Shown one piece after another: positions 1,921 through 45,944 of a DNA stretch of 64,000 nt (its first letter is position 1; each line of letters opens with the position of its first letter). Below the pieces are notes generated by a model. The model saw only the letters and a program-made list of their open reading frames with translations. It ran no database searches and was not told where the DNA came from. Where the stretch lies: contig NZ_DF967972.1 of assembly GCF_001050235.1 (NCBI RefSeq), positions 806,171 through 870,170 on the forward strand, given 5' to 3'. A program made the position numbers and the translations under genes. This DNA is from Longilinea arvoryzae. Lineage in GTDB: Bacteria; Chloroflexota; Anaerolineae; Anaerolineales; Anaerolineaceae.

Positions 1921-1993
1921 GCCGCCGCGTAGGTTGGGTTGAGTGGCGTGAGCCCATGCCCGGATTGGACCTATACCGGAACGAAACCCAACA
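1921..1993. repeat. Copy A of a dispersed structured element with conserved ends CGCGTAGGTYGGGTTGAG ... CGAAACCCRACRTT, whose terminal 8-bp arms (gttgggtt/aacccaac) can pair
   Basis: Direct comparison with 42003-42098 shows about 20/23 identity at the 5' box and about 12/14 at the 3' box, with a variable internal hairpin region. Confidence 0.6.
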
Positions 1994-19195: not shown

Positions 19196-19230
19196 CTCCC
19201 GCGGTATAATCCAACGCGTTAACTCTGGCG

Positions 19231-19809: not shown

Positions 19810-19811
19810 AG

Positions 19812-19885
19812 AGTGAAGAGTGAGGAGTGAAATGAAAGAATTCACGGTTCACTCTTCACCCATCACTCCTCACTTCTTCTTGATA
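19812..19885 (+). terminator. Inverted repeat of gtgaaga/gtgagga words immediately after the mntP stop (hairpin; weak U-tract)
   Basis: gtgaagagtgaggagtgaaatg ... ttcactcttcacccatcactcctcac are near-perfect reverse complements. Confidence 0.45.
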
Positions 19886-22624: not shown

Positions 22625-22852
22625 CGCTCCCTTAATCCGCCAACGCTGAATGAATCTGGGGGCGAGGGTAACCTTGCCCCCAGGAGTTATTGAAGGCTCC
22701 CCCCGTTATTTTACATAGAAGGTCCAAGGCTTTCGATGCCTTTTCTATTGCCAGAATCCGTCAATTCTGGCGAGAGAGCGTGTTAATCAAGACTTGAAAC
22801 TTCCAACGATATGCTATTTTAAGTAAAAAATCTCTCCTTTTGGAGACGCCGT

Positions 22853-23875
22853 ATGTCCGCATCTCTACGCAAATTTCTAATCACCCGTATTCTTCTCACC
22901 ATTCCCATGGTGTTGATCCTGATTACGCTGGTGTTTCTCATCATGCGCATCCTACCCGGCGATCCGATCCGCTCACAGCTTGGCCCGCGCGTCAGTGAAG
23001 AGCAGGCCAACCAGTTACGCGAACGCCTGGGCCTGAACCGCCCGTTGATCGTCCAGTATGGCGAATTCCTCTGGCAGATGGTCACGTTCGACTTCGGCAC
23101 CGCGCTCACCCAGGGTGAACGCCCGATCAAACAGGAACTGGCCGAAAAACTCCCCGCCACCATCGAGCTCTCCATCCCGGCGGTCATTTTCATGGCCGTT
23201 TTTGGGGTGGGTTCGGGCGCCTACGCCGCCAAGAACCGCAAAAAACCAGTCGATTATCTCCTGCGACTGTTCAGTATTGTCATTTACTCCATCCCGATCT
23301 TCTTTATGGGTTTGATGTTTCAAATTGCCTTTTCGGTAAAGCTGCCCGTGTTCCCGCTGGCCGGACGCATGGATACTTTGATGCAGGTGAACTTTGTTTC
23401 ACCCACTCATTTCTATGTCATCGATGCCATCCTCACCCGCAACTGGCCGGCATTGGGTTCGGCATTAATGCATTTGATCCTGCCCTCCTTTACACTGGGA
23501 CTGGCGCTGACCGGTGTCTTCATCCGCCTGACGCGCGTCAACATGATCGAAATCCTGCAGTCCGATTTCATCACCGCCGGGCGCGCGCGCGGCATCTCCG
23601 AAAGACGGCTGGTCTACAAACACGCCCTGCGCAATACGTTTATTCCCATCCTGACGCTGATCGGTCTGCAGTTCGCCGCCCTTATGGCGGGCGCGGTGCT
23701 GACCGAAACGACCTTCTCGTGGCCTGGCATTGGGCGTTACCTGGTGGAGCGCATCCAACTCCGCGATTACACCGCCGTGCAGTCTACGATCGGTGTGTTC
23801 GCCATGTTCGTCGCGGCCATCAGCCTGATCATGGATGTGTTGTATGCATTCGTCGATCCCCGCATCCGGTACTGA
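22853..23875 (+). CDS. ABC peptide/nickel transporter permease (DppB/OppB-like)
   Basis: BPD_transp_1-type permease with the EAA-like loop; first permease of the operon. Confidence 0.9.
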   Translation: MSASLRKFLITRILLTIPMVLILITLVFLIMRILPGDPIRSQLGPRVSEEQANQLRERLGLNRPLIVQYGEFLWQMVTFDFGTALTQGERPIKQELAEKLPATIELSIPAVIFMAVFGVGSGAYAAKNRKKPVDYLLRLFSIVIYSIPIFFMGLMFQIAFSVKLPVFPLAGRMDTLMQVNFVSPTHFYVIDAILTRNWPALGSALMHLILPSFTLGLALTGVFIRLTRVNMIEILQSDFITAGRARGISERRLVYKHALRNTFIPILTLIGLQFAALMAGAVLTETTFSWPGIGRYLVERIQLRDYTAVQSTIGVFAMFVAAISLIMDVLYAFVDPRIRY

Positions 23876-23900
23876 TCCGGCGTAAAGGAGAAATGATCCC

Positions 23901-25151
23901 ATGGAAGAAAAACAAATAACTCCTGAAGCCGTTCCCCAATGGCAGTTGGACCTGGACAAGGTCGGTTTCGTGCGCAAGCTTTTCCTGGCGCGCAAGTGGT
24001 ACGGCGGTGATTGGTGGTTCGTGGCCGTCAGCGCCGTGCTGTTGTTGTTCATCATCCTGTTGGGTGTGGCGCCGAAATGGTTTGCCCCCTACGATCCGCG
24101 AGCCGAGGTCGGCCCGGCCCTGCTGTCTCCGGGTGAAATCCCTCTGGGCTATGTGCTGGTGGTCCAGGCTGACAGCACTGTGACTTCCTTGAAAGAAATC
24201 GGAACCAACAAGAACAATATCGGTTACGTGGTGGGCAGCGCTGCCAGCCAGGCGCTGCGGGATACCATCGACGAATTGAACGCCGCCGAAAAAGCGGCCG
24301 GCTCGGGCATCACCTACCAGCCCCGGCCGCGCCGGTATGAGACGAACGACCTGGGGTTGGCCGATCTCCAGGACGGCAAGCTGGACGCCTTCGTGGCCAG
24401 CATGGAAGAGCTGACGCCCCTGCTGCCGAAGTTCCCGGGCGTCAAAGTGGCCGGCAATCTGACCGGCAATACCAAAACGTTTACCCTGGGCACCAACCAA
24501 CTCGGCCAGGACGTGCTCAGTCGAATCATCTGGGGCACGCGCATCGCTTTGATCGTCGGCCTGAGTTCGGCCATCATCTCGTTCTTACTGGGCGTACCGC
24601 TGGGCCTCATATCCGGTTTCATCGGCGGACCGTTCGACCGCGTGCTGACCATGTTGATGGACAGCCTGTACTCCTTCCCGGGTCTGATCCTGGCGATTGC
24701 CATTGCCGCGGTGCTGGGGGCCGGCATTGGAAATATCATTGTGGCCATCGCGGTGTTGTACATTCCAACCTACTTCCGGATCGTGCGCGGGCAGACTCTT
24801 TCGGTCAAGAACGACCTGTACGTCGAAGCGGCCCGCAGCCTGGGCACGCCCCCCTGGCAGATCCTGACCAAATACATCCTGCCCAACGTCATCCCGTCGG
24901 TTGTGATCATCTTCTCGGTCAACGTGGCGGACGCCATCCTGACCGAGGCCGGCCTGAGCTTTTTGGGCCTGGGCCTGCCGCCGGACACACCCGACTGGGG
25001 CATCGACCTGTCGCGCGGGCAGGATTACATCCGCCGCGCCTGGTGGTTGATCACCTTCCCCGGCGTGATGGTCAGTCTGGTCACTTTATCATTCAGCATG
25101 CTGGGTGAGAGTCTCGCCGAGATTCTCAACCCGCGGCTGGCGGAGTTGTAA
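23901..25151 (+). CDS. ABC peptide/nickel transporter permease (DppC/OppC-like) with an approximately 150-aa extracytoplasmic insertion after TM1
   Basis: The C-terminal 250 aa are a canonical OppC-type permease. The insert (IGYVVGSAASQALRDT...DLQDGKLDAFVASMEEL) resembles one lobe of a type-2 periplasmic-binding fold. Confidence 0.85.
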   Translation: MEEKQITPEAVPQWQLDLDKVGFVRKLFLARKWYGGDWWFVAVSAVLLLFIILLGVAPKWFAPYDPRAEVGPALLSPGEIPLGYVLVVQADSTVTSLKEIGTNKNNIGYVVGSAASQALRDTIDELNAAEKAAGSGITYQPRPRRYETNDLGLADLQDGKLDAFVASMEELTPLLPKFPGVKVAGNLTGNTKTFTLGTNQLGQDVLSRIIWGTRIALIVGLSSAIISFLLGVPLGLISGFIGGPFDRVLTMLMDSLYSFPGLILAIAIAAVLGAGIGNIIVAIAVLYIPTYFRIVRGQTLSVKNDLYVEAARSLGTPPWQILTKYILPNVIPSVVIIFSVNVADAILTEAGLSFLGLGLPPDTPDWGIDLSRGQDYIRRAWWLITFPGVMVSLVTLSFSMLGESLAEILNPRLAEL

Positions 25152-25154
25152 ACG

Positions 25155-26168
25155 ATGGACCAATCTTTTCCTCTGGTACAAATCCGCGATCTATCGGTCA
25201 CCTATAACACCCGCCTGGGTCCGACCAGCGCGGTGGATAAGATCAGTTTCGACATTCGCCGCGGCGAAATCATGGGTCTGGTAGGCGAGAGCGGCTGCGG
25301 AAAGAGCACGCTCGGCAAAGCCCTGCTGCGCATGATCATGCCCCCTGGCTACATCAGCGGCGGCCAGATCATCTTCAACGGCGAAAACGTCATGAAGTTC
25401 GACGAAAAACGCCTGCGGGATTACCGCGGACGTCAGGTTAGCATGATCTTCCAGGACCCGATGACCTCGCTCAACCCGGTGCAAACCGTGGAGCAGCACC
25501 TGGAGGAAGCCATTCAGGTGCACGAGGCCGAGACCAAAACGCCCTATATCATCAAGCGCATCCAGACCCTGATCGAACGATTGGGCATCATGCAAAGCCG
25601 CCTCGACAGCTACCCGCACCAGCTTTCGGGCGGCATGCGCCAGCGCGTTATGGTCGGTCTGGGGCTGGTGTTGAACGCCGGGCTGATCATCGCCGATGAA
25701 GCCACCACCTCACTGGATGTAATCGTAGAGGCCAAGCTGGTCGACCAATTGCGCGAGATCCGCGACGAATTTGGGGTGAGCATCCTGGCGATCACGCACA
25801 ACATCGCCCTGGTGGCCGAAATCGCAGACCGCGTGGCGGTGATGTACGCCGGCAATCTGGTGGAACTGGGGGATGTCAACCGCATCTTCGACGCGCCCCT
25901 GCACCCCTACACCCAGGGCCTGCTGGCATCGGTGCCCACCACCGAAATCAACGCAAAGAAGGAGCTCTACAAAATGCCCGGCGAGCCGCCCAACCTGGCG
26001 CGCCCGCCGTCCGGCTGCCGTTTCCATCCCCGCTGCCCCGCGGCCATGCCCATTTGTTCGCGCTACCGGCCCGCGCTGGAAGAAGTTGCGCCCGGGCATT
26101 GGGTGCACTGCTGGTTGTATCAAGATCACCCGGAAAAGGTTGAAAAGACGATCAAGGTGGCCGCATGA
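25155..26168 (+). CDS. ABC transporter ATP-binding protein (DppD/OppD-like)
   Basis: Walker A (GESGCGKST), signature (LSGGMRQR), Walker B ([11 protein letters not shown]) and the C-terminal oligopeptide-ABC extension. Confidence 0.9.
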
Positions 26169-27184
26169 ACGTGGAAATGTCTGCTCATCAACAGGAAAAC
26201 CTGGTGGAAATCCAGGACCTGAAAAAATGGTTTCCGGTGCAAAAAAGCTTCCTCGACCAGATCCTGGCCGGGCGCAAGGATTTCGTTCGCGCGGTCGATG
26301 GGGTGACTTTTAACATCAAACGCGGCGAGGCATTTGGCCTGGCGGGTGAATCGGGCAGCGGGAAGACGACCATCGGCCGCCTGGCGATCGGCCTGGAAAC
26401 ACCCACCGAGGGCACGGTGCGCTTCGACGGCATCGATCTCAGCACGCAAAACGAACGCGAGATGCGCCACCTGCGCCGGCGCATGCAGGTGATCTTCCAG
26501 GATCCGATGGCCTCGCTCAACCCGCGCATGACCCTGGGCGACAGCGTGGTGCAGGGCCTGAAGATTCACTACCCCGAGGCGGCCGAAAAACACCGCGACA
26601 CACTCCTGGAAATCTTCGAACGCGTGGGACTCAGTCCGGCGCGCTACTTCATCAATAAATACCCGCACCAGATTTCGGGTGGGCAGCGCCAGCGCGTGGT
26701 CATCGCGCGCGCGTTGATCACGCGCCCCGATCTGGTGCTGGCCGACGAACCCATCGCCATGGCGGATGTGAGCGTGCGCGCGCTGCTGCTGGATTTGATG
26801 GTTCAACTGAAGCAGGAATTCAACCTGACCTATCTGTTCATCACGCACGATCTGGCGACGGCCAAATACATTTGCGACCGCATCGGCATCCTCTACCTGG
26901 GCCGGTTGGCCGAAGTGGGCGAGCTGAAAGAGGTCTACAGCTACCCGTTGCATCCCTACACCCAGGCCCTGATGGCGGCCGTGCCCGTCCCCGACCCGCA
27001 CAAACGCCGCACTCAGCCCATGCCGGCCGGTGAAATTCCGAACCCCATCAACCCGCCCTCGGGCTGCCGTTTTCACCCGCGCTGCCCCATCGCGCAGGCG
27101 ATCTGCTCGGTGGAGGAACCCGAACTGCGCGAACTGCGCCCCGGTCATCTGGTGGCGTGCCATTTCGCCGAGAAGTTCCTGTAG
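26165..27184 (+). CDS. ABC transporter ATP-binding protein (DppF/OppF-like)
   Basis: Walker A (GESGSGKTT), signature (ISGGQRQR), Walker B (LVLADEP); 4-nt overlap with the upstream gene. Confidence 0.9.
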   Translation: MNVEMSAHQQENLVEIQDLKKWFPVQKSFLDQILAGRKDFVRAVDGVTFNIKRGEAFGLAGESGSGKTTIGRLAIGLETPTEGTVRFDGIDLSTQNEREMRHLRRRMQVIFQDPMASLNPRMTLGDSVVQGLKIHYPEAAEKHRDTLLEIFERVGLSPARYFINKYPHQISGGQRQRVVIARALITRPDLVLADEPIAMADVSVRALLLDLMVQLKQEFNLTYLFITHDLATAKYICDRIGILYLGRLAEVGELKEVYSYPLHPYTQALMAAVPVPDPHKRRTQPMPAGEIPNPINPPSGCRFHPRCPIAQAICSVEEPELRELRPGHLVACHFAEKFL

Positions 27185-27216
27185 GAAATTCACAGGATCG
27201 ACAGGATTTTAAGGAT

Positions 27217-27258
27217 CAAAATCGGATGCTGCGTTTTTGACAGCATCCGATTTTTTAC
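27217..27258 (+). terminator. Rho-independent terminator after the Opp/Dpp operon
   Basis: Perfect 14-bp stem (aaaatcggatgctg / cagcatccgatttt) with a T-tract. Confidence 0.6.
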
Positions 27259-27563
27259 GCTGGGGTACGGTCGGGCCAACGCCTAGGGGGCACGGCTGTG
27301 TCTTTTTAACCCATGCGTATGGGCACGGCTATGTGGGGAATATACGTAATATCGTAACCCGGCAGGCGACTCGAACGGCGCTGGAAGGGTTGCATACTAA
27401 AATTGTTTATTGTTTTTTTCAGGAACCGCTGTCAGCGATCAATCCAACCAATTTCTTAAGGAATGGAACCGGCAGGGCCATTTGGACGTTTAATACAAAA
27501 AGGATACAATGGGTGGAATTCTGGCATTCTTCTGGCAATCGAGGATCAAATAGGTTGACATTC

Positions 27564-28706
27564 ATGCAACGAATTCGTTCGATCTTCCGGCGAGGCGGAG
27601 CGGTGTGGCTGGCGCTGCTGCTGGTTTTGCTGTTCACCTGGACCGCCAGCGCGGCCGGCGGCGGCACGACCATCTATCTGCCGTACGTGGCCAAACAGCC
27701 CACGCCTACCGCCACGCCTACACCCTTACCGCCGCTGCCGTCCGATTATTCGGTAAGTTATTACGTGCAGACCAACAGCAATCAGGCGGCCTACGACAAG
27801 GGTTGTGCGCTCGGCCAGACCGATTTGAACCTGGCCGGCGCTCAGGACCGGCTGGTCATCCTTGACTTCGGCCAGCCCTGGTATGACGATTACGGCACGC
27901 TGGGAACGTTGATTTTCCGCGTTCCGCCGAACACGAACTGGACGTTCATGTCGATCGGCGCCATTGGCGAATTCGCCAAGAATTTTGCCACCGGTTACTG
28001 GGTCTGCACGGGCAGCGATAAGGCCTCACACCTGACTCTGGGCATTGGCACCAGCAATTACCTGGGCACCGATCCGCCGGTGGACATGAAAGTGCCCGGC
28101 ACGGTTCGAAATCACGGCAGCCAGTGGGCTCAAATGGTGTTGAACGTGAATGCCTGGTTGTCCACCCAGCATTACGCCGCGCAGGTGACCGCCGCCGGCG
28201 CCAATGACATGGAACTCTCCTGGGCCACTTCCGCGCTGACCCGCGCCTGGGTGGACGGGTTCGATTCGGCGGATAACAATTCAGCTCTCTACTATAATTA
28301 CGGCGCCTGCGAGGGCTGCCCGCAGACTTATTACGCCGACATCGGTTCGTGGACTGGAGGGAAGAATTATTCCTGGCATGTCGAAGATGTCTGGTACATT
28401 TCCTGGGGCATCCCGCCGGCCTGGGTGGTGCCGGAGATCTATTTGAGCAATGAAGCCAACGCCAAGCAATGGCAGACCGTCAGCAAATACGCCAAGGTGC
28501 AAAAGGGAATGCGCATCGATTTCTCAGGCGTGATGACCCAATCCGGCGCCTGCCAGCAGCGCGGCGGCTGCACCGGCACCAGCAGTGATACGATGAACAC
28601 CCCACAGGAGGGTTGGAACCAGTTGTGGAAGTACACCTTCGCCGATCCCGACACGCGCATGAACCGCCTGCCCTGGATGACGGACATCCGCTATTGGACC
28701 AACTGA
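27564..28706 (+). CDS. Secreted hypothetical protein (signal peptide plus Pro/Thr linker; Trp-rich domain of unknown function)
   Basis: Start at the internal ATG giving a classic signal peptide (MQRIRSIFRRGGAVWLALLLVLLFTWTASAAG); PTPTATPTPLPP linker. Confidence 0.6.
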   Translation: MQRIRSIFRRGGAVWLALLLVLLFTWTASAAGGGTTIYLPYVAKQPTPTATPTPLPPLPSDYSVSYYVQTNSNQAAYDKGCALGQTDLNLAGAQDRLVILDFGQPWYDDYGTLGTLIFRVPPNTNWTFMSIGAIGEFAKNFATGYWVCTGSDKASHLTLGIGTSNYLGTDPPVDMKVPGTVRNHGSQWAQMVLNVNAWLSTQHYAAQVTAAGANDMELSWATSALTRAWVDGFDSADNNSALYYNYGACEGCPQTYYADIGSWTGGKNYSWHVEDVWYISWGIPPAWVVPEIYLSNEANAKQWQTVSKYAKVQKGMRIDFSGVMTQSGACQQRGGCTGTSSDTMNTPQEGWNQLWKYTFADPDTRMNRLPWMTDIRYWTN

Positions 28707-28759
28707 AGAGGAGTGATGAGGGATGGGTCGAAGCGTTGAGAAAAAATGGATTACAATTT

Positions 28760-28801
28760 CTCATAACTCATAACTCATAACTCATAACTCATAACTCGTA
28801 A
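28760..28801. repeat. Tandem heptanucleotide repeat (ctcataa x5 followed by ctcgtaa)
   Basis: Six contiguous 7-bp units read directly from the sequence, about 40 bp upstream of the 28839 gene. Confidence 0.85.
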
Positions 28802-28838
28802 CGAAGAACGAATCAACCCCTCACGAATAACGCAACCT

Positions 28839-29516
28839 ATGAAACGCATCTACTTCTTTATCGGAACCCTCTTACTGATCGGCCTGCTCTTCTGGGGCGG
28901 GAGCGTGCTCGCCAGCTCGAAGACCCCCGAACAGCAGCAGCTCGATTCGTTGCAGGACCAGGCCGCCAACGCTTCAGACCCGGCCGTGAAGGCGCTGCTG
29001 CAGCAGAAGGCCGAGCCGTTGAGCGCGGCCCAGGCTGCCCAGGCGACCGCCCAGGCCAACGCGCCGGATAAGCCCAGCGACGTGTGCGGGCTGCGACCGG
29101 CGGCCGATCCGAACGCCACCCCGGCCCCGACGATCGAAATTCCGCGCGGCATCAGCGACTGGCTGCAGCCGCCCTTTTCGCCGCAGGAATTCAGCGTGAC
29201 CAATCAGTGGAACGACCAGGTGGACGGCGTCTGGCTGACCGCCTACGCCGGCGTGCTGGGTGATGACCCCGATCAGGGCGCGATCGTCGCCGTGGATGCG
29301 CAGGGCAACTACTTCCGCTACCTGTTGAACAGGGGCTCCGGCGCGGCCCGATTTGCCGCCGCTGACGGCTCGCTGCTGACCGTCGAAACCGGCAACGGAT
29401 CGACCTACCAGCTCGATATGGCCGCTTTGACGCTCACCGACGCGCAGGGGCAGGTGCTGCAGGGCGTCCAGCAGGCCGCTCCGGCTACCGTGAGCAGTTC
29501 AGGTCCGTGCCAATAG
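28839..29516 (+). CDS. Secreted hypothetical protein (signal peptide; Gln/Ala-rich N-terminus)
   Basis: Signal peptide (MKRIYFFIGTLLLIGLLFWGGSVLA); no recognisable domain. Confidence 0.55.
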   Translation: MKRIYFFIGTLLLIGLLFWGGSVLASSKTPEQQQLDSLQDQAANASDPAVKALLQQKAEPLSAAQAAQATAQANAPDKPSDVCGLRPAADPNATPAPTIEIPRGISDWLQPPFSPQEFSVTNQWNDQVDGVWLTAYAGVLGDDPDQGAIVAVDAQGNYFRYLLNRGSGAARFAAADGSLLTVETGNGSTYQLDMAALTLTDAQGQVLQGVQQAAPATVSSSGPCQ

Positions 29517-29521
29517 ACCGT

Positions 29522-30202
29522 TCAGGCTTCGCCCGGCGGCCCTTTTTCGACATCCATTAAATCGGTTTCACGAAGGCCCTGACGCAACATCACGGCCTTC
29601 TTTATCGTTTCCAACAGCAGCGGCCACAACTGCGGGCGCGCAACCTGGAACTGCTCCAGCATGTTCTGGATGGATTTGATATCTTGCGCCAGAGCCAGGG
29701 TTTCTGGCGGTACTGCATAGCTGCGCTTGACCGATAACAGCTTGCGCTCTTCGATCACGTTCAGCAGGCCGCGCGCGGCCAGACCGTTCTGGATGCGCGT
29801 CACCACTTCGGCAAACGGATCATCGTAACTGGTCTTCAACCAGACGTAGATCAGGCGCGCCAGGTCACCGCTTTCTTTATGCACGTCGCTCGAACCGGCG
29901 GCAGCCAACACATCGGCTTCCAGGGTTTGAGCGGGCCAGTCGGCGGATTTTCCGGTCGGTTCGACGGAGAGAATTTCTTTCTTGACGAGGCCGAACCAGC
30001 GCGAGTGTTCGCGCTGCGATAGCAGCAGGGTTCCTGTTTGAAGATTGGCCAACAGCGCGCTGGCCAGCGCCGCCTGCACCAGTTGGGCAAGATGGACTTC
30101 GCGGCCGGAATGCAGCAAGCGCGTGCGCCGGGAAGCGCGCGGTTCGCCGGCGAATTGTTCGCCGTTCAGGTAGACCAGTTCGCTGGGGGTCAACTGGGCC
30201 AA
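29522..30202 (-). CDS. Hypothetical protein
   Basis: 226-aa ORF with high-GC codon bias; no recognisable motifs. Confidence 0.45.
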   Translation of the reverse strand: MAQLTPSELVYLNGEQFAGEPRASRRTRLLHSGREVHLAQLVQAALASALLANLQTGTLLLSQREHSRWFGLVKKEILSVEPTGKSADWPAQTLEADVLAAAGSSDVHKESGDLARLIYVWLKTSYDDPFAEVVTRIQNGLAARGLLNVIEERKLLSVKRSYAVPPETLALAQDIKSIQNMLEQFQVARPQLWPLLLETIKKAVMLRQGLRETDLMDVEKGPPGEA

Positions 30203-30341
30203 AGGGGTCTCCTTGAAAAGGGATAACGCTAAGTGAGCTAAATTTTATCAGAAATCCGGCGCCCGGCCAGAAGAATAGTTGTGCAAATTGATTAATAGAA
30301 CTACAATTCTATTATCCAACCACTTGAAAAAGGAGATCCCC

Positions 30342-30689
30342 ATGTCGAAGATCAAGCGCATCCCCACGCCCTTCAGTTATTCAGACGCTGTTCAGGCCGG
30401 CGACACGGTTTATCTGGCGTTGCACCGCGGATTCGCCGAGGATTTCGAAGGCCAGTGCCGCAACGCGCTGGAAGGCATTCGCAAGTCGCTGGCGCATTTC
30501 GACCTGGGATTGGAGAGCCTGGTCAAGGTAAACGTGTGGCTGAAGCACGTCAGCGACCTGCCCAGGATGGAGAAGATTTTCTTCGATTATTTCGAAAAGG
30601 ACGGTTTTCCGGTGCGCATGACCTCCACCACCGAGTTCATCGACGAGGATTGCCTGATCATGATCGACGGGGTGGCTTTTATCGAATAG
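30342..30689 (+). CDS. RidA/YjgF/TdcF-family reactive-intermediate deaminase
   Basis: Size (about 115 aa) and sequence pattern typical of the YjgF family; AAAGGAG RBS before the ATG at 30342. Confidence 0.75.
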   Translation: MSKIKRIPTPFSYSDAVQAGDTVYLALHRGFAEDFEGQCRNALEGIRKSLAHFDLGLESLVKVNVWLKHVSDLPRMEKIFFDYFEKDGFPVRMTSTTEFIDEDCLIMIDGVAFIE

Positions 30690-36580: not shown

Positions 36581-36773
36581 CTGTCAGGACACTCCGAGGA
36601 CAAGAAAGCGTACGTTAATGACAAAGGTTCGTTGTGGATCCCACCGCGGCTTGTCTTCAATCAGCAATCCGCCATCAGAAATCAGCAATTCATTCAGCCG
36701 CCTAGCCGGGTAAGGGTCAACATTCAGCATTTTTTCCTGCCCCTTTCTTTCCAATCTGCTGTAAGATATTCCC

Positions 36774-38081
36774 ATGTCCAATTCACCTTCCTCCTCCACA
36801 CGCATCACGCCGCGGGCCTGGTTCGTCATGGCCGCGCTGGCCATCACCGGGCAAATCGCCTGGGCGGTCGAAAACTCGTGGTTCAACACCTTCGTCTACG
36901 ACACCATCACCCCCGACCCGCGTCCGGTGGCCTGGATGGTGGCGTGCAGCGCCATCACCGCCACGCTGACCACGCTGCTGATGGGCACGCTCAGCGACCG
37001 GGCGCACACGCGCTGGGGCCGCCGCCGGCCGTTCATCCTGTTCGGCTACATTTGCTGGGGTATCTCCACCATCCTCTTCCCCACCGTGGCCTACATCAAG
37101 GTCACCAGCGTGGCCGTGGTGATGGTGGTGCTGGCCGATTCGCTGATGACCTTCTTCGGCTCCACCGCCAACGACGCCGCCTTCAACGCCTGGACGGCGG
37201 ATATCGCTGCCAGCGATCAGCGCGGCCGGGTGGAGGGCGTGCTCAATCTGAGCGTGTTCATCGCGCAGATCGTGGCCATGGTGGCGGCGGGTATGCTGAT
37301 CGACAGTGTGGGGTATTTCATTTTCTTCTACGCGCTGGGCGCGATTGTGCTGGTGGTGGGCTGGGTGGCCGGCAGCCTGTTGCGCGAACCGCCGCAGCCC
37401 GCGGTGGATGTACACCAACGCTCGTTTTGGGCCGAGTTTGGTGAGTTGTTCAGCCTGGATACGCTCAGGCAGAACCGCGCCCTGTTTATTCTGCTGCTCT
37501 TCATCATGATTACCAGTATCGGCATGCAGATTTCGTTCCCCTACATGATCGTTTATCTGCTGAATTATGTGGGCATCACCAAGACGGATTTCAGCATCGT
37601 CGGCGGGGCGGTGATGGTGGGCAGCGCCCTGGTGGCCATCCCCTTCGGCATGCTGGCCGACCGCTGGAATAAGCGCGCCATGATGGCGATTGCGCTGGTG
37701 GTCAGCAGCCTGGGCGGGATTCTGCTCTCGCTGGTGAAGACACTGCCGCTGCTGGCGACGGCGGGTTTCCTGTGGCAGGGTTTTGCGGTGGCCGTTTCGG
37801 TGGCCTCCGTGGCCTGGTTGAAGGACCTGCTGCCCGAACAAAACCGCGGCAAATTCCTGGGCATCCGCATGATCTTCTGGATCGCCATCCCCATGATCAT
37901 CGGCCCGGCCATCGGCTCGGCCTTGATTCAGGCTTACGGCATCCCCACTGTCTCCAACGGCGAGGCCGGCTTCATCCCGGTGCCCATCATCTTCCAGGTG
38001 GGCTCACTGGTATCCCTGCTGGGACTCCTGCCCTTATTCTTTACAGGTAAAAAGCATGCGAATCGCCTCCCTTCTGCCTGA
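36774..38081 (+). CDS. MFS transporter (probable glycoside/oligosaccharide:cation symporter)
   Basis: 12-TM MFS architecture; encoded immediately upstream of two glycoside hydrolases. Confidence 0.8.
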   Translation: MSNSPSSSTRITPRAWFVMAALAITGQIAWAVENSWFNTFVYDTITPDPRPVAWMVACSAITATLTTLLMGTLSDRAHTRWGRRRPFILFGYICWGISTILFPTVAYIKVTSVAVVMVVLADSLMTFFGSTANDAAFNAWTADIAASDQRGRVEGVLNLSVFIAQIVAMVAAGMLIDSVGYFIFFYALGAIVLVVGWVAGSLLREPPQPAVDVHQRSFWAEFGELFSLDTLRQNRALFILLLFIMITSIGMQISFPYMIVYLLNYVGITKTDFSIVGGAVMVGSALVAIPFGMLADRWNKRAMMAIALVVSSLGGILLSLVKTLPLLATAGFLWQGFAVAVSVASVAWLKDLLPEQNRGKFLGIRMIFWIAIPMIIGPAIGSALIQAYGIPTVSNGEAGFIPVPIIFQVGSLVSLLGLLPLFFTGKKHANRLPSA

Positions 38082-40005
38082 TTTCTGGTACGAACGCCAG
38101 CAGGTCAACGCGCAGCAGGCCATCTTTCATCAGTGGCGCCAGCTCGAAGCCTCGGGCTGTATCGAAAACTTCCGCATCGCCGCCGGTCTGAGCGACGGGC
38201 TGCGTGAAGGCTGGTTCTTTGCCGATTCAGACGCATACAAATGGCTGGACGCGGCCGTGCGCATCCTGCGCGACCGGCCCGATCCTCACCTGGCAGAGCT
38301 GGCGGACGGGTTCATCGATCTGCTGGCGCGCGCGCAAATGCCGGACGGTTACCTGTTCACCTACAACCAGATCCATTTTCCGGGTGTCCGCTGGCGCAAT
38401 TTACAGATCGAACACGAACTGTACTGCCACGGCCACCTGATCGAGGCCGGCGTCTCGCATTTCGAGGCCAGCGGGCGGACGGACCTGCTGGCGGTCGCCC
38501 GGCGCGCGGCCGACCGGATCGTGGCCGATTTTCGCGGCCAGGGCGCCGCTTACACCCCCGGGCATGAGGAGATCGAGATCGCGCTGCTGCGGCTGCATGC
38601 CATCACCCCGGGGGATACCGATTACCTGGGCATGGCCCGCCAGTTCCTCGAGCGGCGCGGGCGGGCCTGGTTTCTGGGCGTCGATCTCTTCCGGCAATTG
38701 TCCGATTCCAACCGGCGGCTGGCTTTTGTGAAGCAGCAAAAGCAGGATTACCGGGCCACCCACCCCGATTTCAAGCCCTTCGAACTGCCGCCCGGGAACA
38801 AATCCATCCGGCCGGGCAACATCATGCTGCGCTGGTACGTTTCGGTATTGAACGGCAAGTATTTTCAGCAGCACGCCCCCATTCGCCGGCAGTGTGTGCC
38901 AGAGGGGCACGCGGTGCGCTTTGCCTATCTCGAAACCGCCACAGCGATGCTTGCGCGCGCCACCGGCGACCGTTCGCTGCTACCGGCGCTGGAAGCAGCC
39001 TGGGAGCGCATGGTGACGCGGCGCATGTACGTCACCGGAGGCATCGGTTCGCTGCCCGTGCTGGAGGGCTTCGGCAACGACGACGAACTGGATCCCGAAT
39101 ACGCCTACGCTGAGACATGCGCGGCGCTGGGCAGCCTGTTCTGGAACTGGCAGATGGCTCAGATCACCGGCGCGGCAAAGTACAGCGACCTGTTCGAATG
39201 GCAGCTCTACAACGCCGCCGCTGTGGGCATGGGACTGGACGGGACAGGCTATCTGTACAATAATCCGCTGGCCTGCCGCGGCGGGGTGACGCGCAAACCC
39301 TGGTACGCGGTGCCGTGCTGCCCGTCCAATCTTTCGCGCACCTGGGCCGATCTGGGCGGCTACATATATACCAACAACGCGGACAGCCTGAGCGTGCACC
39401 AATATATCAGCAGCAGCTTTACAGACGGGCCGCTGAATCTGGAGATGCGCTCGGAACTGCCCTGGCAGGGTCATGTACGCCTGACGGTGAAGGCGGTCCG
39501 CGGACCTGAGCCGGTCGCGCTGCGGCTGCGTTTGCCGGCCTGGGCGGCGGGGATGCGCACCCGCGTCAACGCCCAACCCGCCGAGGCTTTTCCCTTGCCG
39601 GTCCGTTCGGATGAACCGACCGACGCGGGCTACGATCCGCGCAAGGCTGTTTTCGTCCCGCTCGAGCGAGCCTGGTCGGTGGGAGATGTCGTTGAGATTG
39701 ATTTCGACATGCCGGTGCGGCTGCTGCGCGCCCACCCGCGCGTCAAAGGTCACGACGGCAGGGTCGCCGTCACGCGCGGTCCGCTGGTTTACTGCCTGGA
39801 GGACTGCGACAACCTGGGCGTGGATCTTTTCGACGCGCGCCTCGATCCAGAATCGCTTTCGTGGGTCGAGGATGAGGCGCTGCTGGGCGGCATCGTCAAA
39901 CTGGTTGGCAGGACCGTGGATGGTCAAGCGCTGACCTTTATTCCCTACTTCCTGTGGGGCAACCGCGGCCCGTCGCAGATGACAGTGTGGGTGAAAGAGG
40001 GATAA
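38056..40005 (+). CDS. Glycoside hydrolase family 127-like (DUF1680; beta-L-arabinofuranosidase type)
   Basis: N-terminal FADSDAYKWLDAA box and the roughly 650-aa size fit DUF1680/GH127; the start overlaps the MFS gene end by 26 nt. Confidence 0.55.
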   Translation: MRIASLLPDFWYERQQVNAQQAIFHQWRQLEASGCIENFRIAAGLSDGLREGWFFADSDAYKWLDAAVRILRDRPDPHLAELADGFIDLLARAQMPDGYLFTYNQIHFPGVRWRNLQIEHELYCHGHLIEAGVSHFEASGRTDLLAVARRAADRIVADFRGQGAAYTPGHEEIEIALLRLHAITPGDTDYLGMARQFLERRGRAWFLGVDLFRQLSDSNRRLAFVKQQKQDYRATHPDFKPFELPPGNKSIRPGNIMLRWYVSVLNGKYFQQHAPIRRQCVPEGHAVRFAYLETATAMLARATGDRSLLPALEAAWERMVTRRMYVTGGIGSLPVLEGFGNDDELDPEYAYAETCAALGSLFWNWQMAQITGAAKYSDLFEWQLYNAAAVGMGLDGTGYLYNNPLACRGGVTRKPWYAVPCCPSNLSRTWADLGGYIYTNNADSLSVHQYISSSFTDGPLNLEMRSELPWQGHVRLTVKAVRGPEPVALRLRLPAWAAGMRTRVNAQPAEAFPLPVRSDEPTDAGYDPRKAVFVPLERAWSVGDVVEIDFDMPVRLLRAHPRVKGHDGRVAVTRGPLVYCLEDCDNLGVDLFDARLDPESLSWVEDEALLGGIVKLVGRTVDGQALTFIPYFLWGNRGPSQMTVWVKEG

Positions 40006-40160
40006 CCACGGAGACACGGAGTCCACGGAGGAAGAGAAGAAAACAGCCACAGAGTTCACAGAGGACACAGAGGGGAAAAAAGAAGAAGAAAAAACAAGGA
40101 ATTCTCTCTTCTTTTCTATGAATCTTCTCCGTGTCCTCCGTGTCTCTGTGGTGAATCCCT
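40006..40160. repeat. Inverted-repeat element built from cacggag/cacagag words (cacggagacacggag ... ctccgtgtcctccgtgtctctgtgg) between the GH127 and GH2 genes
   Basis: The two arms are reverse complements about 100 nt apart. Confidence 0.7.
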
Positions 40161-40178: not shown

Positions 40179-41960
40179 TTGTCAATCGAACCTTTACGCA
40201 CTCCCTGGGTGCCCGATAGCCCGATCCCGCTGCCCGAATACCCGCGCCCGCAGATGACACGCCCGCACTGGGCCAACCTGAACGGCGCCTGGCAGTACGC
40301 CATCCTGCCCAAAGATGCCCCAGCGCCGCAGACCTTCGACGGCGAGATTATGGTGCCGTATGCGGTCGAGTCGCTGCTCTCCGGTGTGCAGAAACCCCTG
40401 CTGCCGGAACAGCGGCTGTGGTATCGACGCAACTTCAGCGATCCGCGCCCACAGTGGAGCGATGCCCACGTTTTATTGCACTTCGGCGCGGTGGATTACC
40501 TGTGCCGGGCCTGGCTGAATGGCGTTGAACTGGGCCAGCACCGCGGCGGTTACCTGCCCTTCACCTTCGACATTACGGACGTGCTTCGGGAGGGTGATAA
40601 CGAACTGCTGGTCTCGGTCTGGGACCCGACCGACGCGGGCTTGCAACAGCGCGGCAAGCAGGTCCTCAAACCCGGCGGCATCTGGTACACGCCCGTTTCC
40701 GGCATCTGGCAGACCGTCTGGCTGGAGGGTGTGCCGGCGGTGAGCATCGCGGGCCTGAAATTAACGCCCGACCTGGACTGGCAGACGCTGCAGGTCGAGG
40801 TGCGCCTGCGCGGCGGAACGTACGCGGTGGACCTGTGCCTGGAGGTCGAAGCCATGGACGGTGGCCAGGTGGTGGCCAGCGGCGCCTGCCCGGCGGATAA
40901 ACCCCTGCGCCTGAATATTCCCGGCTCGCACGCCTGGAGCCCGGACGACCCGCACCTTTATGATCTGCGGGTGCGCCTGGTGCAGGCCGGGAATGTGCTG
41001 GATGAAGTCGGCAGTTACTTTGCCATGCGCAAGTTCGGACTGGCCGCCGACGGCGCGGGCCACCTGCGCTTCACGCTCAACGACCGGCCGCTGTTCCTCT
41101 ACGGCCCGCTGGATCAGGGTTACTTCCCGGACGGCCTGTACACGCCGCCCAGCGAGGCAGCCATGCTCTACGACATCGAGTACGTGCGCAATCTGGGCTG
41201 CAACATGATCCGCAAGCACATCAAAGTCGAGCCACTGCGCTGGTATGCCGCCTGCGACCGTCTGGGTATGATCGTCTGGCAGGATATGCCCAACGGCGGG
41301 CGCATCGACGGCATGCCGGTGGCGATCGCCGCCCAGGCGTTCGGCTTCTGGCGCAGCGACCGGCGCTGGTTGAGCCGTTTCGGCCGCGCCGAGGAGGCCA
41401 ACCGGGTCGAATATCGCGCCGACCTGCAGGCCATGGTCGATCATCTGTACAACGCCGCCTGCCTCGCCGTGTGGGTACCCTTCAACGAGAGCTGGGGGCA
41501 GTTTCATGCCAAAGAAACCGCCCAATGGCTCAAGGGCTACGATCCCACCCGCCTGGTGGATCACGCGTCCGGCTGGTTCGACCAGGGCGGCGGCGACTTT
41601 CAAAGCAAGCACATCTATTTTAAAAAGCTTTCCCGTCCCCGGCCCGACCGGCGCGCCTTCGTCATCTCCGAATTCGGCGGTTACAGCCTGACGACGCCCG
41701 GCCACGTTTGGGATGTGACCCAGAAGTTCGGCTATCGTTTCTATGACACGCCCGAAGAATTGACAGCCGCCTACCTGAAGCTGTTGGAAGAGGAACTCCT
41801 GCCGCTCATTCCGCAGGGTTTGACCGCGGCGATCTACACCCAGACCACGGACGTGGAAATCGAGATCAACGGCTACCTGACCTACGACCGCAAGGTTGAA
41901 AAGATGGACGCCGAGGCGGTTCGTAAAGCGCACGAGAAATTGATTAATTCACAGGGATGA
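40179..41960 (+). CDS. Glycoside hydrolase family 2 (beta-galactosidase/beta-glucuronidase/beta-mannosidase type)
   Basis: YPRPQ..R..W..LNG.W N-terminal sugar-binding box, [22 protein letters not shown] motif, and a TIM-barrel segment with conserved acidic residues. Confidence 0.75.
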
Positions 41961-42002
41961 AGAATTCACAGGATAGGCAGGATGTTCAGGATTGGAATCT
42001 TC

Positions 42003-42098
42003 GCGTAGGTCGGGTTGAGGGACGAGCAATCAAGATTGTGGCCGGTGAAAAGTATCGTTGAGTTTGGATGGCCTGTCCCGAAACCCGACGTTATGGCC
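42003..42098. repeat. Copy B of the dispersed structured element (CGCGTAGGTCGGGTTGAGGGACG ... CCGAAACCCGACGTT)
   Basis: Shares both terminal boxes with 1921-1993 and lies at the left edge of a low-GC patch. Confidence 0.6.
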
Positions 42099-42258
42099 AC
42101 GATTATGCAATGTCGGTTCTTCAGGGCGATATAGGCTATTCCGACACATTTCTCTATCCCGCCCCTCCGCCCATCCAGGGTAGGACCGACCTGTAAAATT
42201 GAGTTATCGAAGGAATTTCAGTGTGTGCCGCCCACCCGGCCTTTACGGAATTCCCGCA

Positions 42259-43590
42259 TTAATTAAGCTTGCAGAATTCACTCGTTGCGCTGTATGACAC
42301 ATTCATGAAACCCCAATCGCCGATGTGGCCTTTGAGGACATCCGGATAATCGGTATCCAGGATCTTAACCGCTTCTAGACAGGAGGTCATGGCCTTGTGG
42401 GTAACTTCGTATTGCGTGGCAAACTCCTTCGCCACAACGACAAATTCGTTGCCCGGCGTGCCGTCCGGAAAAGATTCGCTCATCTCATGAATGACCTCAT
42501 CCGCCATATCGACCCGATTTTGCGAAAACCAGATCACCACGATGCGGAAAAACGCAAAGGCCTTTTGGTAAGGCTCGGCTAATTCCGTTTGATTTTCAGT
42601 CAATTCATAAGTTGTGAAATAGCTGGAAAGATTCGAGTCTCTGGCAGCAATTTCATAATATGCAATCGCCATCATCAGATTGCCCTTCTTGGATGCGTCA
42701 GCACCATCTCCAAGATAATGGACCCGATCGTCACCTGGCGGTAGATCGGAATAAGAATACTCAAAATTCTTTCCATTCCAGGCAAATACATCTATTTCGT
42801 CCCGGCTTGCACCGCCCCAGAACCCTGTCGAATTTCCAGTCAGGACCAAAACCTCTTTGGTTCCATCGCCATCCTGGTCATCCAGCATGATCTCGCTACC
42901 GACTAGGCCACCGCCAAGAAATATTTCTTTCCATTGATTTTCGCGCCACCCGAATGCATAATATTTCGTTCCCCATCCAATAGTCGCCCTGATTTTGACA
43001 ATGATAAATGGAAGTTCCTTTTCAAAAATTTGTTCTACGAACAGAATGTCACCAGAAGAGACATCCTCAGTTTGAAAGGATTGGACCAGTCGATACGCAT
43101 TTGTACTGCATTGGTAAATATTTATAAGATTTATATCGTCCGAAGGCGAGCCTTCGTTAATTATTGTAATTGACCCGCTCACAACAATTTCTTCCAGCGC
43201 ATCCCCGTCCAAATCCGCAACCGCTGCGCTGACTCTGAGCAAATCCGTGGATGCAAGCAGCGATTTCAGGCTGGCAGGATCTCCTCCATGGTTTACATAA
43301 TCCAAAATGGCGGCATCCAGCTCAACCAGGTTGCTGTAGCCTTTGAGTTCAGCGCCGCCGGTCAAGACCGGGCATCTGTGTTCCGGGGTGGGTGTTGAGG
43401 TTGCCTTCATCTCAGGCGTGTTCGTTTTCGTCTGGATTGCCCTGGTCGCTGTGCCTGTCGCTAGGACTGGCGGAATATTTTGGCCAGGAGCACAGGCCGC
43501 TAACGCTATCATTGCCATGAGTAGAAAGAAAATAACGGGATGAAAATTATTACGATAATATTTCATCTTTTTTGCCTGTTTTCGAGTCAC
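42259..43590 (-). CDS. Secreted lipoprotein with FG-GAP/VCBS-like repeats (LDGDALEEIVV, DQDGDGTKEVLV)
   Basis: Signal peptide with lipobox (LAACA), Thr-rich linker; low GC. Confidence 0.55.
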   Translation of the reverse strand: MTRKQAKKMKYYRNNFHPVIFFLLMAMIALAACAPGQNIPPVLATGTATRAIQTKTNTPEMKATSTPTPEHRCPVLTGGAELKGYSNLVELDAAILDYVNHGGDPASLKSLLASTDLLRVSAAVADLDGDALEEIVVSGSITIINEGSPSDDINLINIYQCSTNAYRLVQSFQTEDVSSGDILFVEQIFEKELPFIIVKIRATIGWGTKYYAFGWRENQWKEIFLGGGLVGSEIMLDDQDGDGTKEVLVLTGNSTGFWGGASRDEIDVFAWNGKNFEYSYSDLPPGDDRVHYLGDGADASKKGNLMMAIAYYEIAARDSNLSSYFTTYELTENQTELAEPYQKAFAFFRIVVIWFSQNRVDMADEVIHEMSESFPDGTPGNEFVVVAKEFATQYEVTHKAMTSCLEAVKILDTDYPDVLKGHIGDWGFMNVSYSATSEFCKLN

Positions 43591-44038: not shown

Positions 44039-45622
44039 TTATCTTAGCTTGAATACCGAGAGGATCTTGGCTCCGTCCAACTCAACTGAATACACTTCCC
44101 GATACTCGCTGGGGTAGGACTTCTTCCAGCGATAGTTGATGATCAGGTACCTGGCCTGATCGTCGGCTTCGATTCCAAGCCAGTTCAATCGTTTTTCATC
44201 CGCCTCTGGAAGGATGAAAGTATAACCTCCCGGGGTGGTTTCCGAAATATAATCGATGACCGGGCTGGGGTCCGTCCGGCTGATATATTCCAGCCCCTGG
44301 CGGTAGGACAGCCCCCAATAATCCAGTTCGTAGCGGCTCTTGAGATCTGCCAGGTTCCCTCCCGCCAGGCGGTTGAAGTACAACTGCTCGTATGGATGCG
44401 CCTGGATCATGAAAACGGCGGTGGAGACGAATGTGGCGCCGAGAATGAGAATCAAACCCAGCGAAGCCACATTGAAACGGCCGAATTTGGCGCTCAACTG
44501 GGCCAGCGTCTTTTCGAAGCCCCAAAAAGCCAACAACAAAAAAGCCGGATAGATAAAGAACAGGTGCCTCCACGAGTCGTAAAGGACTGATTTCAGAAAA
44601 ATGACCAGGAGCAGGGGCACGAAAAACCAGGCTGCGATCGCGAGTAATTTCAGCGCCTGGTTTTCAAAGAAACCGCGAACGGTAAAATGGATCCCGGCGA
44701 TCCACTTGATGGCGCCGGTGAAAAACAGAACCGAATAAAAAATGGGCGTCGAAATCAGGATCCAAACAATCGAGTAGAACCAGGGCAGCTCGGTGGCGGA
44801 GTACGAGGTCCCCATGAACAACACGGGGAGATTCCAGCGAAAATGGCTGAACTCGTTGAGCGCCAGGATGAAATTACCGATTGGATTCTTCCACAGGATC
44901 GGCCAGAATAGAACGCTGAAAAACGCGAACAGGAGCAGGAACAGGGCCAGTTTTGGCAGACCTGCGCGCATCTTCTTCTTCCAGCCCTCGGGCGAACGCA
45001 TAAAGCCCACAATCAGGGTGAGGACGGTGAGAAATGGGATCAACAACCCGGCGAGGCGGATGGTGGTGGTAATCGCCGAAGAGACGGCCAGAAAAATCAG
45101 ATAAACGAATTTTCGCGTGTCCACGTAAACCATGAAGAATGTAAAGCTGATGATAAAGAAAACCAGCAGCGGGATGTCTTTCGTGTTGTAGAAGGCATTG
45201 TCGAAGATGCGTGGACTCAGGATCAGGGCGGCCGTACACAGGAGCGCTGTAATCGCGTTCTTGAATATTCTTTTGGAAAGGATGTAAAAGAAAACCGTTC
45301 CAACGAAGAAGGTCAGAAATGTGAGGAGGTGCCGCAAGAAGTAGATATCCTGATGGGACGCCGGGGGAAAAAACTTCAGTTCAGCTCCCAGCAGGAAGAG
45401 CTCGAAGAATGGGCCGTAGAAGCGGTCTGCCATGCTCACCAGCGGATCTTCGTGCCCCAGGATGAATCTCAGATTGGCCACCCCGATATCTCTCTGGAGC
45501 GGTTCATCCCAGGATACGCCGTAATCTCTGTAAATGGAAAGACCGGCGATCAGGAAAACGGAAAACAACAGGATGGGGAGAATATTCTCCCTGAGCTTGC
45601 GCAGTGCCAGAGTCATGCTCAT
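44039..45622 (-). CDS. Polytopic membrane glycosyltransferase, GT-C fold (GT39/ArnT/PMT-like)
   Basis: About 12 TM helices with an N-terminal first-loop acidic motif region (YGVSWDEP), as in dolichyl-phosphate-mannose / ArnT-type transferases. Confidence 0.55.
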   Translation of the reverse strand: MSMTLALRKLRENILPILLFSVFLIAGLSIYRDYGVSWDEPLQRDIGVANLRFILGHEDPLVSMADRFYGPFFELFLLGAELKFFPPASHQDIYFLRHLLTFLTFFVGTVFFYILSKRIFKNAITALLCTAALILSPRIFDNAFYNTKDIPLLVFFIISFTFFMVYVDTRKFVYLIFLAVSSAITTTIRLAGLLIPFLTVLTLIVGFMRSPEGWKKKMRAGLPKLALFLLLFAFFSVLFWPILWKNPIGNFILALNEFSHFRWNLPVLFMGTSYSATELPWFYSIVWILISTPIFYSVLFFTGAIKWIAGIHFTVRGFFENQALKLLAIAAWFFVPLLLVIFLKSVLYDSWRHLFFIYPAFLLLAFWGFEKTLAQLSAKFGRFNVASLGLILILGATFVSTAVFMIQAHPYEQLYFNRLAGGNLADLKSRYELDYWGLSYRQGLEYISRTDPSPVIDYISETTPGGYTFILPEADEKRLNWLGIEADDQARYLIINYRWKKSYPSEYREVYSVELDGAKILSVFKLR

Positions 45623-45944
45623 TCCTTTGTAGATGGCATCTTGAGCCAGGCCGACCAAAAGCTTTTAATTTGGCTGTAAGGCATCTCGCGTCCGCCTTGC
45701 AGCAATTCAGTGACGTTTACTTCTTTTGATTCAAAAATCTTCCAGATATTAGTGAGGGCTAAATGCCCTCATCAGAGCCTCAACCGTCAAGGATAGTTGC
45801 CGAACAATTGTACGCGGATTGTGAAAATTGCGGAAGGTTTGCCGGTATGCGACAGAGACTCATTTGGGGCAGTTCTCGAAGACAGGCCCGTTTGCCCTCT
45901 TTCGAGACGCGCACCCCGCGTATAATGATTGGAAAACAAGAGGA

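Follow-up and report, generated by a model that had tools for sequence, protein, structure and literature searches.

The closest described counterparts of the element reported here are the REPs (repetitive extragenic palindromes, small hairpin repeats) and BIMEs of E. coli together with their domesticated transposase TnpArep (PDB 4ER8, PMC3479197), a REP-associated tyrosine transposase (RAYT), which falls into RAYT group 2 of Bertels and into subclass 2.2 of Quentin et al. (PMC6006769). In E. coli, the described role of the RAYT is to bind the hairpin once it has folded on single-stranded DNA, to recognize the GTAG at the hairpin foot, and to cut and rejoin DNA nearby, and REPs are described to spread into intergenic DNA (PMC3479197 and PMC8266576, as reported in PMC6006769). 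The GTAG serves as guide and recognition tag of TnpArep (PMC6006769, PMC3479197). The motifs DHLH, WE and YIHYNP are listed for RAYTs of subclass 2.2, their REPs are described as hairpin-bulge-hairpin, and insertions of REPs into RAYT genes were reported (PMC6006769). Further relatives are the GTAG repeats of cyanobacteria, among which GTAG-15 from Anabaena, Nostoc and Cyanothece is characterized by "large loops, 9-15 bp" in Di Nocera et al., 2013 (PMC3733652), the REPINs of Pseudomonas (PMC3116915) and the subterminal hairpins of IS200/IS605 elements. Here, two copies of an element with conserved ends and a variable middle are compared with these systems.

Structure of the two copies in Longilinea arvoryzae

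The window, i.e., the whole 64-kb stretch of L. arvoryzae DNA that was analyzed, contains two copies of the element, termed A and B (Table 1). Copy B covers 42005-42089 of the plus strand (85 nt) and is composed of GTAG, GTCGGGTT, GA, 61 variable nt, GA and AACCCGAC. Its basal stem is fully paired over 8 bp. The inner helix comprises 5 bp formed by GGGAC (42019-23) and GTCCC (42075-79), and the interior beyond is poorly structured. The predicted RNA fold of the plus strand reached -38.6 kcal/mol (z = -4.06 versus shuffles; minus strand z = -2.79) and the DNA fold -16.9 kcal/mol (z = -3.76 versus shuffles). In copy A the GTAG (1929-1932) abuts the hairpin (1933-1992), yielding a unit of 64 nt, the DNA fold of which was only marginally below shuffles (z = -1.96).

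The terminal boxes of both copies read CGCGTAGGT[C/T]GGGTTGAG and CGAAACCC[G/A]AC. The original prediction had called them identical; they are nearly so, but one base pair differs, and this sole difference is a compensatory exchange of C-G for T-A. The interior of copy B is longer and different, as had been proposed (61 nt versus 39 nt in copy A), and with their conserved ends and variable interior both copies represent one element family. For the pattern GGGTTGA..GAAACCC, 0.01-0.04 occurrences per window are expected; in the 64 kb it was found only at copies A and B, so chance is no explanation. Allowing up to 3 mismatches, the 5' box was matched 3 times in the window compared to 0.29 matches expected.

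Both copies are extragenic. Copy A is found between nurA (629-1816, minus) and an HNH gene (2099-2500, minus) of a low-GC block, copy B between two convergent genes (41960 / 42259). By inspection no target-site duplications were seen at copy A (GCCGCC(GC) in front of the GTAG, ATTCC behind the terminal AAC) or at copy B (TCTTCGC in front of the GTAG, GTTATGG behind the terminal GAC). A classification as MITE was dismissed, with no flanking direct repeats at either copy and no matching IS seen in the window. The interior of copy B had no match elsewhere in the window or in the fetched loci, where the interiors of both copies gave only chance 10-14-mers; phages and plasmids yielded no relevant match and metagenome contigs none.

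The element is an imperfect palindrome, its ends are conserved, its centre of about 60-85 nt is variable, and it is located beside apparently acquired genes; it might also be an integron attC or another cassette recombination site, with the low-GC genes as integron-like cassettes. In copy A, GTTGGGT and ACCCAAC indeed fit the words GTTRRRY and RYYYAAC. However, an attC site reads 5'-RYYYAAC...GTTRRRY-3' on either strand, while by inspection the element reads 5'-GTTGGGTT...AACCCAAC-3' on either strand. We rejected this reading because the order of the core sites is reversed; moreover, each patch has a single site, no IntI-like gene was present among the scanned ORFs of the window, and we give it practically no credit.

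Table 1. Positions of copies A and B, of the parts of copy B and of neighboring features in the window.
Feature	Position	Strand	Remark
Copy A, probable REP: GTAG + GTTGGGTT + GA + 39 nt + GA + AACCCAAC	1929..1992	+	
Three nnnCAGGAT words of 9 nt, immediately behind the GH2 stop codon	41963..41999	+	context; outside the REP
Copy B, probable long-loop REP: GTAG tag + 81-nt hairpin	42005..42089	+	sequence; RNA and DNA folds
Copy B, GTAG tetranucleotide abutting the 5' hairpin foot	42005..42008	+	sequence
Copy B, basal stem, 5' arm GTCGGGTT	42009..42016	+	pairs with 42082-42089; position 3 covaries
Copy B, GA, 5' half of the symmetric 2x2 GA/GA internal mismatch	42017..42018	+	
Copy B, variable inner region, 61 nt	42019..42079	+	closed by inner helix GGGAC/GTCCC
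Copy B, GA, 3' half of the internal mismatch	42080..42081	+	
Copy B, basal stem, 3' arm AACCCGAC	42082..42089	+	
Candidate decayed inverted partner of copy B	42113..42179	-	tag side outward, as in REP dimers of relatives

A family with a conserved basal stem in other genomes

The family was searched for with the pattern GTAGGTYGGGTTGAG-N35-65-GAAACCCRAC in one genome per species. This species-representative scan gave at least 118 stretches from other genomes with both boxes, the hosts belonging to the Cyanobacteria, the Anaerolineae and other Chloroflexi, the Poribacteria, the Desulfobacterota and the Zixibacteria (individual loci are given as L numbers). Among the cyanobacteria, members were found in Nostoc, Anabaena, Dolichospermum and many others. 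In related genomes several copies were present within 8 kb, and one MAG had matches on several contigs. A literature search with sequence words of the element returned only unrelated primer matches.

The canonical, common form elsewhere is a 29-nt hairpin, GTAGGTTGGGTTGAGGAACGAAACCCAAC. Canonical hairpins of 29-32 nt share the frame GTAG GTTGGGTT GA-GG(N)AC-GA AACCCAAC with an inner region of 5-8 nt, and the units are arranged singly, in tandem arrays or in inverted pairs. The long form has the same ends with 39-68 nt between the stem arms and is common in Anaerolineae, including Longilinea MAGs (L039, L047, L101). A total of 71 distinct long-loop units with the frame of copy B were counted, both window copies included. 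At the third stem position and its partner, which the pattern had left free, T-A was observed 122, C-G 7, T-G 3 and C-A 0 times (Fisher p = 1e-9), indicating that pairing of the basal stem is under selection. Among 256 units with a GTRG tag, GA is found at the start of the inner region in 229 and at its end in 222, a count partly biased by the search pattern.

The interiors were unrelated between genomes and on average folded no better than shuffles (mean z = -0.2). Within one genome, long units sharing their interior at different sites were found (L037, L101, L051, L093, L107). Remnants resembling AACCCAAC were slightly overrepresented in long loops (mean best match 4.91 versus 4.67; p = 0.014, exploratory), and fresh duplications of the 3' half or arm with flank were observed in L004, L023, L070, L073, L102 and L116. 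As a working idea, a long loop would arise when the 3' arm and some flanking sequence are duplicated and the inner copy then decays. Tandem REP arrays including flank were seen in L028, L042, L052, L056, L063, L093 and L107; they are regular, the short forms repeating every 39-56 nt and the long forms every 82-134 nt. Such arrays, together with the partial duplications of 3' arm and flank, suggest that slippage or unequal exchange took place at the hairpins.

With respect to the surrounding genes, rough gene calls in the other genomes classified REP-containing gaps as convergent, tandem and divergent in 32, 64 and 15 cases, compared to 70, 202 and 80 for other gaps (p = 0.038). Hence, REP gaps were enriched between convergent and depleted between divergent genes.

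In Anaerolineae the units often form inverted pairs with outward tags and spacers of 12-24 nt (L039, L047, L049, L051, L074), and most of these pairs combine a type 1 unit (GAGCG..AGCGA) with a type 2 unit (GAGGGG..CCCCGA). No inverted partner unit was seen for copy A. For copy B, a candidate follows after a spacer of 23 nt (42090-42112). Compared to type 2 units, it agrees at 13 of 19 positions of the 5' box and 12 of 15 of the 3' box; the inner stem GGGCG/CGCCC is kept and the basal stem is lost. Since scores of 24 or more occur only about twice per shuffled window, its two-box score of 25/34 within a slot of 100 nt is unlikely by chance, although the test was post hoc. The similarity is no more than suggestive of a decayed inverted partner; if the partner is real, copy B would be the intact half of a decayed inverted dimer.

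The partner transposase

In all seven RAYT-bearing loci examined (L071, L024, L034, L092, L123, L127, L128) the RAYT gene was flanked by hairpins of the family. A motif screen of the 118 pattern-fetched loci identified 4 ORFs of the HUH/Y1 type, each adjoining the element, and all 4 matched Pfam Y1_Tnp. In L071, a Poribacteria chromosome, the RAYT gene is preceded by one unit and followed by two inverted units, with the tags pointing outward, and the same layout was found in L123, L127 and L128, which were fetched via the protein. In L123, from the Anaerolineae, both flanking units are of the long-loop form; the downstream one, GTAG GTTGGGTT GA GGCGGGCC..GGCCCGTCC CGA AACCCAAC, has exactly the frame of copy B.

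The RAYT scored 206 bits with the NCBIfam model REP_Tyr_transpos (cutoff 80), is a close homologue of E. coli TnpArep (PDB 4ER8; E = 3e-43) and carries the motifs DHLH, WE and YIHYNP. A single RAYT scored with the IS200 model as well, and reached only 22.7 bits (cutoff 55). No RAYT of L. arvoryzae was among the best 120 matches listed in two protein searches, which is uninformative either way. In L024 (5591-6190, minus), a RAYT gene has an in-frame REP insertion, read as PVGWVEQSETRQ, between conserved protein blocks.

These data also bear on a reading of the element as a structured RNA gene or a cis-regulatory RNA that is independent of any transposase and exposes a variable loop on a closing stem with a tandem G-A motif. 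The better RNA fold of the plus strand of copy B, the tolerance of G-T combinations in the stem (3 units), the strongly asymmetric orientation of GA..GA relative to the tag (biased by the search pattern) and the location in a 3' UTR are consistent with an RNA. However, Rfam 15 gave no match in the window at the gathering score and nothing relevant around either copy at E ≤ 1, the interiors are unconserved between genomes and on average fold no better than shuffles, and units are present in both orientations and as inverted dimers. The association with the RAYT accounts for the tag and for the strand asymmetry, and we regard an RNA function of this kind as very unlikely.

Copies A and B as probable long-loop REPs

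Based on its anatomy and on RAYT genes flanked by the same hairpins, the element is a REP with a GTAG tag as understood in PMC3733652 and PMC6006769, and copies A and B are very probably REPs of the E. coli-type RAYT family. For REPs, a GT[AG]G 0-2 nt 5' of the hairpin foot is expected, and in both copies it abuts the stem. Of the 7-20 bp expected for a fully paired basal stem 8 bp are present, with a compensatory change, and in other genomes a cognate RAYT is flanked by the same REPs in inverted orientation. The size deviates. REPs measure about 20-40 nt and have either a 2-5 nt loop or a short upper stem attached via a bulge of 1-3 nt; the GA/GA bulge and an upper helix are present, but the units comprise 85 and 64 nt with inner regions of 61 and 39 nt, while the canonical 29-nt form falls into the usual size range. 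Long-loop units exceed the usual REP size (20-40 nt) and the loop limits of REP finders as given in the methods of PMC6006769 and PMC12306157. Thus, the window copies are long-loop REP variants outside current REP definitions. Such long-loop REPs of Anaerolineae would be missed by REP finders, which limit loops to 5-11 nt, and the REP content of these genomes is therefore probably under-counted.

In terms of mechanism, the GTAG followed by a hairpin on single-stranded DNA would be the substrate of a RAYT (TnpArep, an HUH/Y1 enzyme), and the L. arvoryzae copies would have been spread, formerly or still, by a RAYT acting on single-stranded DNA. By analogy with E. coli, we infer that the GTAG of copy B is a guide and recognition tag of the TnpArep type. 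The 64-kb window of L. arvoryzae holds 2 REP copies, with large loops that are mostly unstructured. An element with conserved ends and a variable middle would then be explained as a REP, making a new class of island junction unnecessary. An E. coli-type RAYT and a nearly invariant REP stem, GTYGGGTT, are common to at least five phyla.

Comparison with E. coli REPs shows agreement in the GTAG at the hairpin foot, in the hairpin-bulge-hairpin architecture (basal stem of 7-8 bp, a non-complementary dinucleotide on each side, upper helix), in the extragenic location at gene ends, in inverted dimers and RAYT genes flanked by inverted REPs, and in the close relationship of the flanked RAYT to 4ER8 with its motifs. 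Differences concern the stem sequence (GTYGGGTT versus GCCGGAT in E. coli), the hosts (Anaerolineae, Cyanobacteria, Poribacteria and Desulfobacterota versus Proteobacteria for E. coli-type REPs) and the inner region, which amounts to 39-61 nt in the window copies compared to an upper stem with a short loop in E. coli. Unlike proteobacterial REPs, which are mostly genus-restricted, the family has nearly the same stem across phyla.

Matched by description, the family is probably the cyanobacterial GTAG-15 of Di Nocera et al., 2013 (PMC3733652). Both share the GTAG tag, dimers and tandem clusters, and the canonical form found here has a loop of 9-12 nt on an 8-bp stem; inner regions of up to 27 bp are given there (GTAG-14 of Bradyrhizobium), while loops of 40-65 nt and Anaerolineae hosts are not described in that study. 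Pseudomonas REPINs (PMC3116915) resemble the pairs in related Anaerolineae, which are inverted with outward tags and a short spacer, and whole pairs recur identically at different sites (L051). Unlike in REPINs, the two units of an Anaerolineae pair differ (type 1 versus type 2), and the pair therefore does not form a single long hairpin; copy B, in contrast to paired REPINs, has at best the decayed candidate partner. The subterminal hairpins of IS200/IS605, and those of their derivatives that lack a transposase gene, are likewise targets of a Y1 HUH enzyme that recognizes them on single-stranded DNA, and a short guide sequence precedes the stem on its 5' side. However, the units enclose neither tnpA nor tnpB, the window shows no pairing of left and right ends around a cargo, and the associated enzyme scores as RAYT (206 bits).

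Relation to low-GC DNA

The original prediction had linked the element to the insertion of foreign DNA, and it may accordingly be read as an attachment site, a scar or the end of a mobile island, causally tied to the low-GC insertion. The boundary behavior described for both copies was confirmed: each is located at a GC step (delta-GC 0.133, 94th percentile of the window positions) and has a rank of 0.87 in comparison with 23 other intergenic gaps. A lineage-specific synteny breakpoint coincides with copy B, in L051 a single-ORF segment of 39% GC is found between two identical REP dimers, and large GC steps at the element were also observed in L049, L008, L080 and L022. REPs are known as IS targets and as join-points of duplications.

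At the level of the family, however, no such link became visible. For 88 element clusters of other genomes the percentiles of |delta-GC| look uniform (mean 0.54, KS p = 0.40), and among 25 Chloroflexi clusters 4 were above the 90th percentile (p = 0.24); using 1.5-kb flanks, 5 of 21 Chloroflexi clusters were (p = 0.05). Compared to other intergenic gaps of the same loci, REP gaps ranked at 0.42 for the GC step. Many genomes thus carry the element without an adjacent GC change, the kind of finding that the original prediction itself had named as refuting, and at family level this speaks against the proposed link. In the window, the element borders each low-GC patch at one edge, with no second copy at the far edge; the ORFs scanned in the two patches included no integrase or recombinase, and no target-site duplications were seen by inspection at either copy. 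In L132, the only usable locus (2 kb) obtained from metagenomes, a homologue of the adjacent patch gene (69% identity) is present without the element. The demonstrated partner of the element is a RAYT, not an island recombinase. A causal role as junction is consequently considered unlikely; REP and low-GC DNA do adjoin at these two sites, probably by local coincidence, but not as a rule in the family. Most likely, the neighborhood of low-GC DNA would reflect shared use of the same permissive gene-end spacers, with no dedicated insertion function of the element; possibly, REPs are also recombination-prone sites.

A combined reading, in which the long-loop REPs of Anaerolineae are hairpins with 40-65 nt of sequence that was captured or duplicated, and REP units or dimers are preferred recombination or insertion points for foreign low-GC gene cassettes, appears improbable as well. 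Hints in its favor are the segment in L051, the GC steps in L049, L008, L080 and L022, and both window copies. If true, REPs would not only mark genomic-island borders in Anaerolineae but also contribute to their formation. Useful markers of island borders they would be if the weak local link were general in this class, which the family-wide tests do not support.

In L051, identical REP dimers of 141 bp (3090-3229 and 3961-4100) surround the 39%-GC segment in DNA of about 57% GC (3090-4100 in total). The segment contains one ORF of 140 aa without Pfam match and resembles a gene cassette between two REP dimers. Next to copy A, the low-GC block (2099-7075, minus, 35-44% GC) encodes an HNH nuclease (2099-2500), a UvrD-like helicase (3244-5037) and an OLD-type ATPase-TOPRIM protein (5048-7075). 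Helicase and ATPase-TOPRIM protein look like an anti-phage pair of the Gabija type (GajA/GajB) in an acquired island.

The comparison of homologous loci proposed for copy B could be carried out in part. L119, L122 and L130 retain the gene order MFS-GH127-GH2, after which GH2 converges on RidA, and carry no element of this family. L119 is a Longilinea MAG with 78% GH2 identity; the nearest relatives have 75-79% and differ in downstream synteny. Similarity to the relatives ends just past the GH2 stop codon and the first words, and the 3' flank of GH2 is therefore a lineage-specific breakpoint. The breakpoint is real, but a clean empty site for the 42.1-45.7 kb patch could not be defined. In the window, the RidA block is located at 27.5-30.7 kb. 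In the Longilinea MAG L119, an opp-type ABC transporter operon and the block ending with RidA adjoin GH2. Their counterparts in the window (20951-30686) are found 10-20 kb upstream of GH2, with the RidA block inverted relative to its neighbors. This shows that the region underwent several rearrangements in L. arvoryzae. The GH2-RidA spacer of the relatives holds other conserved palindromes, in L119 (3103-3154) and L122 (10195-10246), AGCAGGTCGG..CCGACCTGCT inside GGGCGA..TCGCCC, which is absent from the window and had no Rfam match in either locus, and in L130 (6390-6420) the palindrome GTAGGGGCGAGCC-GGC-GGCTCACCCCTAC.

The 3' flank of the GH2 gene

On the plus strand, GH127 (38056-40005), GH2 (40179-41960), three nnnCAGGAT words (41963-41999) and copy B follow each other, with copy B starting 45 nt past the GH2 stop codon (41960). 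The setting is as it had been described, with copy B between the terminator-like words of GH2 and the low-GC patch at 42.1-45.7 kb (47-52% GC). The names given to the two patch genes were less well founded. For the gene at 42259-43590 (minus), which is convergent with GH2 and had been called an FG-GAP lipoprotein, no Pfam family scored above threshold and the FG-GAP match (E = 0.018) is below the cutoff, leaving the label weak. The assignment of the gene at 44039-45658 (minus) as GT-C glycosyltransferase is marginal (PMT_2/GT-C, 25.5 bits versus a cutoff of 26.1). Both genes lie in DNA of 47-52% GC compared to about 60% elsewhere.

CAGGAT word arrays after stop codons were found three times in the window, at 41963-41999 (+), 27187-27223 (+) and 8353-8384 (-). 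They consist of three or four 9-nt words, and CAGGATN2-4MAGGAT was observed 6 times compared to 0.05 times expected. The word nnnCAGGAT resembles the GGA-type binding consensus of CsrA/Rsm. Two of the arrays are directly followed by an ordinary GC hairpin, at 27224-27256 (then a T-run) and at about 8300-8345 (minus); at GH2 the REP fills the slot held by this hairpin after the other arrays. An intrinsic (Rho-independent) terminator was rejected because copy B is not followed by a T-run (the sequence after the stem is GTTATGGCC) and the terminator scan of 41800-42400 detected no terminator-like site. Because copy B occupies the hairpin slot of a CAGGAT array 45 nt past the GH2 stop, it may, in analogy to E. 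coli REPs, be the 3'-end hairpin of the GH2 transcript and protect it against 3' exonucleases, or cause pausing or ending of transcription.

Further repeats were noted in the intergenic regions. The GH127-GH2 spacer (40005-40152) contains a long inverted repeat of 8-9-nt words (CACGGAG / CACAGAG) with an A/G-rich centre, and this architecture is kept in relatives with different words (L130, 4405-4612; L119, 950-1180). Short tandem arrays of 7-nt words were found in many intergenic regions, with a different word at each site (1-28, 1883-1908, 9262-9346, 19033-19196, 19807-19879, 28760-28802 and 36658-36689); the words include TTCAGCA, GGTATG-type, GGGAAGA, GAATACC/TACCGCA, CTCATAA and CAATCAG. 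Some of these arrays form distant inverted pairs, such as 9275-9307 with 19841-19873, and the arrays recall the STRR heptamer repeats of cyanobacteria. Finally, two stretches of 300 nt (62078-62377 and 62864-63163) form a direct repeat with 72% identity at a distance of 786 nt and probably represent paralogous gene segments.
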